Of a DNA stretch of 58,711 nt, positions 49,850 to 50,669 are shown piece by piece. The notes below the pieces were generated by a model. That model was given only the letters and a program-made list of their open reading frames with translations. It was not told the origin of the DNA and ran no database searches. Positions within the stretch are counted from its first letter, which is position 1, and every line of letters begins with the position of its first letter. The stretch lies in IMG/VR virus record IMGVR_UViG_2925891887_000002, one strand, 5' to 3'. Origin of the DNA: a virus (lineage: Duplodnaviria; Heunggongvirae; Uroviricota; Caudoviricetes). The translations under genes were made by a program, and so were the position numbers.

Positions 49850-50173
49850 ATGGATGCACAAACACGCCGCCGCGAACGTCGCGCAGAGAAACAGGCTCAA
49901 TGGAAAGCAGCAAATCCCCTGTTGGTTGGGGTAAGCGCAAAACCAGTTAACCGCCCTATTCTCTCGCTGAATCGCAAACCGAAATCACGAGTAGAAAGCG
50001 CACTAAATCCGATAGACCTTACGGTGCTGGCTGAATACCACGAACAGATTGAAAGCAACCTGCAACGTATTGAGCGCAAGAATCAGCGCACATGGTACAG
50101 CAAGCATGGCGAACGCGGCATAACATGCAGAGGACGCCAGAAAATTAAAGGTAAATCTATACCACTTATTTAG
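49850..50173 (+). CDS. N: Antiterminator N
   Basis: 107 aa from [18 protein letters not shown], lambda N match. Confidence 0.95.
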
Positions 50174-50669
50174 AAAATGCAGATTTAGGGAACAGATAGG
50201 AGGCGTTACACCTATGGCATCTCATCCTATGGTTAGAAGGTGGTGCAAATCCTTCGTATTGAAGTATGGATTTCACAGAAGATTCATAGCATTGAGCGCA
50301 AAGATAGTGCATTGGCTGACCGGTATTTGCCGATTTTTTGAGACGATAAACCACCGTAGCAACAGTAGGTGTATACATCTCATAGTTTTTCTTTTCCTCT
50401 TCCCACTTAGAGGCTCGATTTATCTTTTCTTCAAGCTCAATAATCTTGTCCTTAGAAATCATCAAAAGCTCATTAAGTGACATTTGCTGCTGTTGGGCAT
50501 CCATGAGCTTATCGACAAGTTCGTATGTTTTTTCTTTTACTGAGTAGTCTATTTGCATTTTCTGGATTTCCTTTACTGCGCCAACAGCACTCATCAGAGC
50601 ACCTCCGGCACCAGAAACTGCATCTGTAATCCTACTTATTATTCCTTTTTCATCAGACATATAAATCAC
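50166..50669 (-). CDS. Hypothetical protein with C-terminal CxxC..CxxC zinc ribbon, antisense to the PL operon
   Basis: 167-aa ORF between N and ral on the opposite strand. Confidence 0.5.

Follow-up and report, generated by a model that had tools for sequence, protein, structure and literature searches.

An open reading frame between N and ral of a lambda-like Escherichia coli prophage very probably encodes the antiphage protein Rip1

An open reading frame (ORF) on the strand opposite the PL operon of a lambda-like prophage is, we conclude with high confidence, rip1 ("ring interacting pore 1"), an antiphage moron of one gene that stands behind a sieB-type promoter and would act by the mechanism already published for Rip1. 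The window, by which we mean the whole stretch of 58,711 nucleotides that was analyzed, is an E. coli prophage with its attachment site on the ybhC side. No new biology is established here: the function, mechanism, and family of Rip1 were published in 2026 for a protein that differs by one residue. Rather, a product filed as "hypothetical protein" (WP_001278766.1) and as phrog_1244 of "unknown function" can now be named as that of a defence gene whose mechanism has been published.

The open reading frame and its relationship to HK446 Rip1

The window is inverted with respect to the lambda map, with N (49850-50173) and ral (50870-51070) reading on the plus strand, and the ORF list places an uninterrupted minus-strand ORF between them, which encodes 167 aa (50166-50669) if a GTG start is taken. 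The position and the orientation opposite the PL genes are therefore as described in an earlier reading made from the sequence only (the sequence-only reading). The ORF and N are convergent, and their 3' ends overlap by 8 bp (50166-50173), from which it follows that the breakpoint of the cassette described below lies exactly at the N stop codon. Within the overlap the last sense codon and stop of the ORF (AAA TAA) complement the end of N (CTT ATT TAG). An ATG at 50660 (164 aa, 50166-50660) is the more likely start than the GTG at 50669, because it is the start in the RefSeq call for this ORF (WP_001278766.1 in E. coli 22AR0322, whose chromosome is 100% identical to the window over the stretch compared, 48300-51300), it gives the 164-aa length of the solved HK446 Rip1 chain, it has a Shine-Dalgarno-like AAGAGAG 8 nt upstream, and the GTG, which the predicted RNA start precedes by a mere 17 nt, overlaps that same element (50675-50669). 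The features of the locus are collected in Table 1.

Table 1. Positions of the features of the rip1 locus in the window
Feature	Position	Strand	Relation to lambda	Basis
N, up to its stop codon	49824-50173		97.1% identity	blastn
rip1 cassette, 530 bp	50174-50703		No similarity; replaces lambda 34454-35036 (sieB and 28 bp upstream)	blastn
Upstream flank, orf28-like ORF, and ral	50704-51400		99.6% identity	blastn
rip1 coding sequence, 164 aa, with stop codon (50166-50168)	50166-50660	-		ORF list, RefSeq, PDB match
Codons 7-34, Gly/Ala/Ser-rich N-terminal helix, proposed pore-lining segment	50559-50642	-		AlphaFold2, hydrophobicity, review
Codons 39-90, long central helix	50391-50546	-		AlphaFold2; superposition with the Rip1 chains of 9OOX
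Codons 93-164, beta-rich C-terminal domain with CxxC...CxxC, ring-contacting half	50169-50384	-		AlphaFold2, alignment, review
Shine-Dalgarno-like AAGAGAG, 8 nt before ATG 50660	50669-50675	-		Sequence reading
-35 TGTACC	50723-50718	-		Aligned with the P22 sieB promoter
-10 TAAAAT, after a 19-nt spacer	50698-50693	-		Aligned with the P22 sieB promoter
Whole sieB-type promoter	50693-50723	-		P22 record BK000583, promoter 29690-29720
Second ACCCCTACAG motif; predicted +1 is its A at 50686, 26-nt leader	50677-50686	-		P22 RNA start 29727
First ACCCCTACAG motif, over the -35, 34 nt upstream of the second	50711-50720	-		Sequence comparison

The ORF is a real gene. Long antisense ORFs do arise by chance, and a consensus scan finds no canonical sigma-70 promoter upstream of this one, which would fit the suggestion of the sequence-only reading that it might be fortuitous and have no product. 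However, the translation matches phrog_1244 (E 4e-53) and has 29 homologues in a 90%-identity cluster database, the named sources of which include Escherichia, Citrobacter, Edwardsiella, Pantoea, Providencia, Serratia, and Proteus. The homology search that had been proposed as a check thus finds conserved relatives in number, as a profile search covering 1.84 billion representative proteins returned 2,962 clusters at 50% identity with E ≤ 1e-3 and 1,387 with E ≤ 1e-10. [quoted passage not shown] Given these thousands of homologues with invariant cysteines and other residues, the purification and cryo-EM solution of a protein one residue different, and the position of the gene behind what the P22 record annotates as the sieB promoter, the probability that the ORF is fortuitous is so low that we regard it as negligible.

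Intact rip1 is carried by 95 of the 5,426 complete E. coli genomes (∼1.8%), taking as carriers those with at least 80% of the stretch 50174-50800 (the gene and its upstream sequence), and the top match among these is 100% identical at the DNA level. Carriage of the allele at this frequency is relevant wherever resistance to T-even phages has to be predicted, as in phage therapy.

The identity of the product was assigned by sequence and by structure. A phmmer search matched it to PDB 9oox_L (E 1.4e-105) with residues 3-164 aligned and a sole difference, Y95H, the residue being tyrosine in the window protein and histidine in HK446 Rip1. This entry, a cryo-EM structure released on 2026-02-04, bears the title [quoted passage not shown] By tblastn the protein is 99.4% identical to HK446 gp37 and 100% identical to proteins of the phages ev099 and 720R6. 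An AlphaFold2 model built from the alignment (mean pLDDT 69) has helices at 7-34 and 39-90 and a beta-rich C-terminal domain, the same succession of N-terminal helix, long central helix, and C-terminal beta-rich domain as in the solved Rip1, and Foldseek matches the model to 9OOX with an E-value of 1.7e-17 and a target-normalised TM-score of 0.85. Confidence in the model is low for helix 7-34 (pLDDT 42-54) and is 68-85 for the strands at 93-158.

The segment 7-30 is the most hydrophobic part of the protein, residues 7-24 have a hydrophobic moment of 0.42, and the highest Kyte-Doolittle mean over 19 residues is 1.28, at residue 11, which is below the classical transmembrane level. This profile fits the published account of Rip1, and the computed picture, at low model confidence, is of an amphipathic N-terminal helix with no classical transmembrane segment. 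The general arrangement, a single prophage gene with a sieB-type promoter that is read opposite to the surrounding operon, is also that of Rip1, and the antisense orientation recurs in HK446, HK620, 611R5, and DMS3.

The C-terminal pair of CxxC motifs noticed in the sequence-only reading is indeed present, with the spacing CxxC(23)CxxC (C121/C124/C148/C151), and its cysteines, invariant in the 20 homologues, lie in the putative ring-contacting domain. The label "zinc-ribbon protein" holds for this four-cysteine motif but not for the whole protein, which is Rip1, and the Pfam match itself is sub-threshold. Scans of the product against Pfam, NCBIfam, and PADLOC gave only sub-threshold matches, and PADLOC-DB version 2.0.0 (2023) has no model matching it; as neither this release nor Pfam holds a family model, there is no independent family call. 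The zinc ribbon Zn_ribbon_4 (PF13717) reached 13.2 bits (E 0.087) where the gathering threshold is 30.3. Nucleic-acid binding is frequent among zinc ribbons, and the motif together with this weak match could be taken to mean that the lysogen makes a nucleic-acid-binding regulator, such as a transcription or translation factor, and not a membrane-active defence. That reading is extremely improbable: the score is far under the cut-off, no DNA-binding fold occurs among the structural matches, the protein encircles a phage small terminase in the solved complex (9OOX), and the phenotype given in the passages on Rip1 in PMC13434031 is a breach of the membrane with abortive infection.

A sieB-type promoter, a twin-motif leader, and cassette exchange

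The sequence-only reading placed no lambda gene in the gap between N and ral. This was mistaken, since lambda carries sieB at the position of rip1, likewise antisense to PL. By blastn the locus is, in sequence terms, a clean exchange of the sieB cassette for a rip1 cassette, bounded by flanks that are close to lambda on both sides (Table 1). Hence rip1 came into this prophage by cassette exchange with sieB; one breakpoint is the N stop codon, and the other precedes the rip1 start codon by ∼44 bp.

Over ∼110 nt, the sequence preceding rip1 is almost the same as that preceding lambda sieB, P22 sieB, and HK620 hkaP, and up to the -10 the block is identical to its P22 and lambda sieB counterparts. 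The sieB promoter of the P22 record (BK000583) has a -35 TGTACC, a 19-nt spacer, a -10 TAAACT, and an RNA start at the A of ACCCCTACAG, and these annotated elements align base for base with the window. The consensus scan misses a promoter of this type because the -35 is poor. Across 47-56 distinct leaders the -10 is TAAACT, TATAAT, TAAAAT, or TAATAT, and within the conserved promoter/leader block (50661-50770, minus strand) it is kept between the twin motifs. Inspection of the promoter and ribosome-binding site, proposed in the earlier reading, thus turned up sieB-type hexamers together with the Shine-Dalgarno-like element. Expression independent of PL, which the same reading had thought possible in the lysogen, now appears very probable on the match to the P22-annotated promoter, and the passages on Rip1 in PMC13434031 report that it protects lysogens. 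As the gene would be transcribed antisense to PL from a sieB-type promoter of its own, it is probably made in the lysogen.

The motif ACCCCTACAG occurs three times in the window against an expectation of 0.04. The third copy (19579-19588) is within the head protease gene, and we take it as chance. In IMG/VR the twin-motif pair is found at at least 120 loci, and among the matches listed the gene behind it is SieB-type in ∼93 cases, Rip1/HkaP-type in ∼27, and of another kind in 1. Candidate hairpins are present upstream in the promoter/leader block, but an Rfam scan of 49200-51400 gave nothing significant, folding gave the leader no significant gain in stability over shuffled sequence (z -1.67), and RNAalifold on 47 distinct leaders returned weak structures with few compensatory changes. 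A structured RNA is therefore unsupported by either the shuffling test or the alignment-based folding.

A tentative and, in our judgement, rather unlikely reading is that the sieB-type promoter and leader are a mobile unit of expression that itself has a part in regulation. The block, with its two exact motifs, precedes abortive-infection genes that are not related to each other, namely those of the lambda-type SieB, P22-type SieB, Rip1, and HkaP kinds. On that reading the twin motifs could bind a putative factor, and convergent PL transcription through gene and leader could silence Rip1 when the resident prophage turns lytic, which would protect the prophage from its own defence much as sas/esc does for P22 SieB. 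Recent recombination in a shared flank may be the simple cause of the conservation of motif and spacing across divergent cargo.

Proposed mechanism and the state of the prophage

The primary publication on the mechanism is Patel, McCarthy, Taylor et al. 2026, Nature 651:1060-1067 (doi 10.1038/s41586-025-10075-1); our account draws on the PDB title, a meeting report, and a review (PMC13434031, section 5). According to the passages on Rip1 in PMC13434031, the protein protects lysogens against superinfection and is not toxic by itself (citing Patel et al. 2026), and superinfected cells round up, a sign of inner-membrane damage. The same passages place escape mutations in the small terminase in E. 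coli phages and in the portal protein in Pseudomonas phages, describe by cryo-EM 12 Rip1 monomers around an 11-mer small-terminase ring, and assign amphipathic helices to the N-terminal part and contact with the ring to the C-terminal half. They also report that the Rip1 complex releases dye from liposomes and that small-terminase mutants deficient in oligomerisation fail to trigger Rip1 (PMC13434031). A conference report agrees that 12 Rip1 cap an 11-subunit terminase, and a preprint (doi 10.64898/2026.04.30.721860) has the small terminase sensed by Rip1.

Applied to the window protein, this account predicts that a superinfecting phage, at a late stage, makes a ring oligomer around which Rip1 monomers would assemble, the trigger being the small terminase if an E. 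coli phage such as T6 infects and the portal if a Pseudomonas phage does. The C-terminal four-cysteine domain would contact the ring and the N-terminal amphipathic helices would make a pore in the membrane, so that breach of the inner membrane would kill the cell before virions mature, an abortive infection in which a single protein would be both sensor and effector. Two small terminases encoded in the window, the resident lambda Nu1-like one (34333-34878) and that of the satellite-like element described below (22115-22657), were considered as counterparts of the partner in 9OOX and neither matches it; the partner there is the T6 small terminase.

Several features of the prophage were observed alongside. 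Its portal gene is split into two fragments (20233-21015 and 31400-32233) by an element of ∼10.4 kb (∼21016-31399) that encodes a tyrosine integrase, an HTH regulator, a BRO-N protein, an Icd-like protein, a RepA helicase, and an SSB, and in addition a major capsid protein, a head decoration protein, and a small terminase of its own. With this gene content the element looks like a phage satellite. As both junctions with the portal gene recur in 58-61 of the 5,426 complete E. coli genomes, the element seems to integrate site-specifically into portal genes of the lambda-like type. An IS1 of 768 bp (48413-49180), flanked by a 9-bp target duplication GGGAGATTC (48404-48412 and 49181-49189), lies between the immunity region and OL/PL and truncates a gene at 48025-48438. 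This gene is the second of an overlapping plus-strand pair (47594-48028 and 48025-48438) downstream of the repressor, in the position of lambda rexA/rexB; the two are assigned to phrog_5893 and phrog_5820, families of unknown function, and gave no Pfam or PADLOC match. By position the pair is a candidate two-gene defence expressed in the lysogen.

The prophage is crippled, its portal gene being split and an IS1 lying close to its immunity region, and the regulatory context of rip1 may therefore differ from that in an intact phage. The same lesions would fit a gene that, although intact, is silent or inactive here, through degradation of the element or through the Y95H difference. We consider this very unlikely, given that the ORF, the Shine-Dalgarno-like sequence, the promoter hexamers, and the predicted start site are all intact, that the proteins of ev099 and 720R6 and, at the DNA level, the best E. 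coli genome are identical to it, and that residue 95 is neither invariant nor 90% conserved in the 20 homologues. Defence morons, moreover, commonly survive longer than the remaining prophage.

Comparison with HK446, related phages, and SieB

HK446 Rip1 (gp37) resembles the window protein in its 164-aa length, its slot next to N, its orientation, and an identical upstream promoter/leader. The two prophages differ in their backbones, that of HK446 being HK97-like and that of the window lambda-like (Nu1/A/B/C heads, Red, P/O replication), and the window prophage, unlike HK446, is defective. More distant is HkaP of HK620, a "putative superinfection exclusion protein" of the Rip1 family (27% identity, E 5e-6), which occupies the same slot behind a nearly identical leader but is highly diverged, has an extra gene, hkaQ, between it and N, and owes its assigned function to position. 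Outside this group, the unrelated E. coli phage vB_EcoM-611R5 carries a 53%-identical Rip1 homologue (locus positions 4001-4570) beside its repressor, antisense to the adjacent early genes and behind a diverged twin-motif leader, and the sequence comparison thus suggests that promoter and gene may travel together between phage types.

The Pseudomonas Casadabanvirus proteins (DMS3-25, D3112 orf25, JBD30, and relatives) align with 30% identity over ∼87% of the length (E ∼2e-17) and are, like rip1 in the window, products of antisense morons inside an opposite-strand operon of a prophage. [quoted passage not shown] For the Pseudomonas Rip1, escape mutations fall in the portal protein and not in the small terminase in the account given in PMC13434031. 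The small/large terminase slot of these homologues is also that of the Tab/anti-Tab system of JBD26, and Tab is similarly encoded on the minus strand, has its own promoter, is expressed from the prophage, and targets late assembly proteins (PMC10884400). Tab was considered as a relative for this shared slot and was rejected, as it is an unrelated protein of 83 aa that acts on the tape-measure protein to stop tail assembly and depends on its partner anti-Tab for self-immunity (PMC10884400). The TerI (Listeria) and Fc02 exclusion genes are likewise unrelated.

The lambda and P22 SieB proteins are similar to Rip1 in slot, orientation, promoter, and a leader with twin ACCCCTACAG motifs. SieB is a prophage-expressed defence that acts late and kills the infected cell, a form of abortive infection, and in this Rip1 is alike. 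By position alone, between N and ral, antisense to PL and behind a sieB promoter, the window gene would pass for sieB, but location and promoter do not confer membership, and the protein was rejected as a SieB for want of sequence homology to the ∼190-aa membrane proteins of lambda and P22. No BLASTP link connects SieB and Rip1, which fall into separate clusters, and SieB sequences have long hydrophobic stretches, whereas Rip1 is without a segment at classical transmembrane hydrophobicity. P22 SieB, furthermore, has an internal product, Esc, for self-immunity; in rip1, a reading of the sequence at the in-frame starts M35, M53, M60, M67, and M94 found no convincing equivalent that has a ribosome-binding site. 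In lambda-like prophages, Rip1 and SieB are interchangeable behind one promoter.
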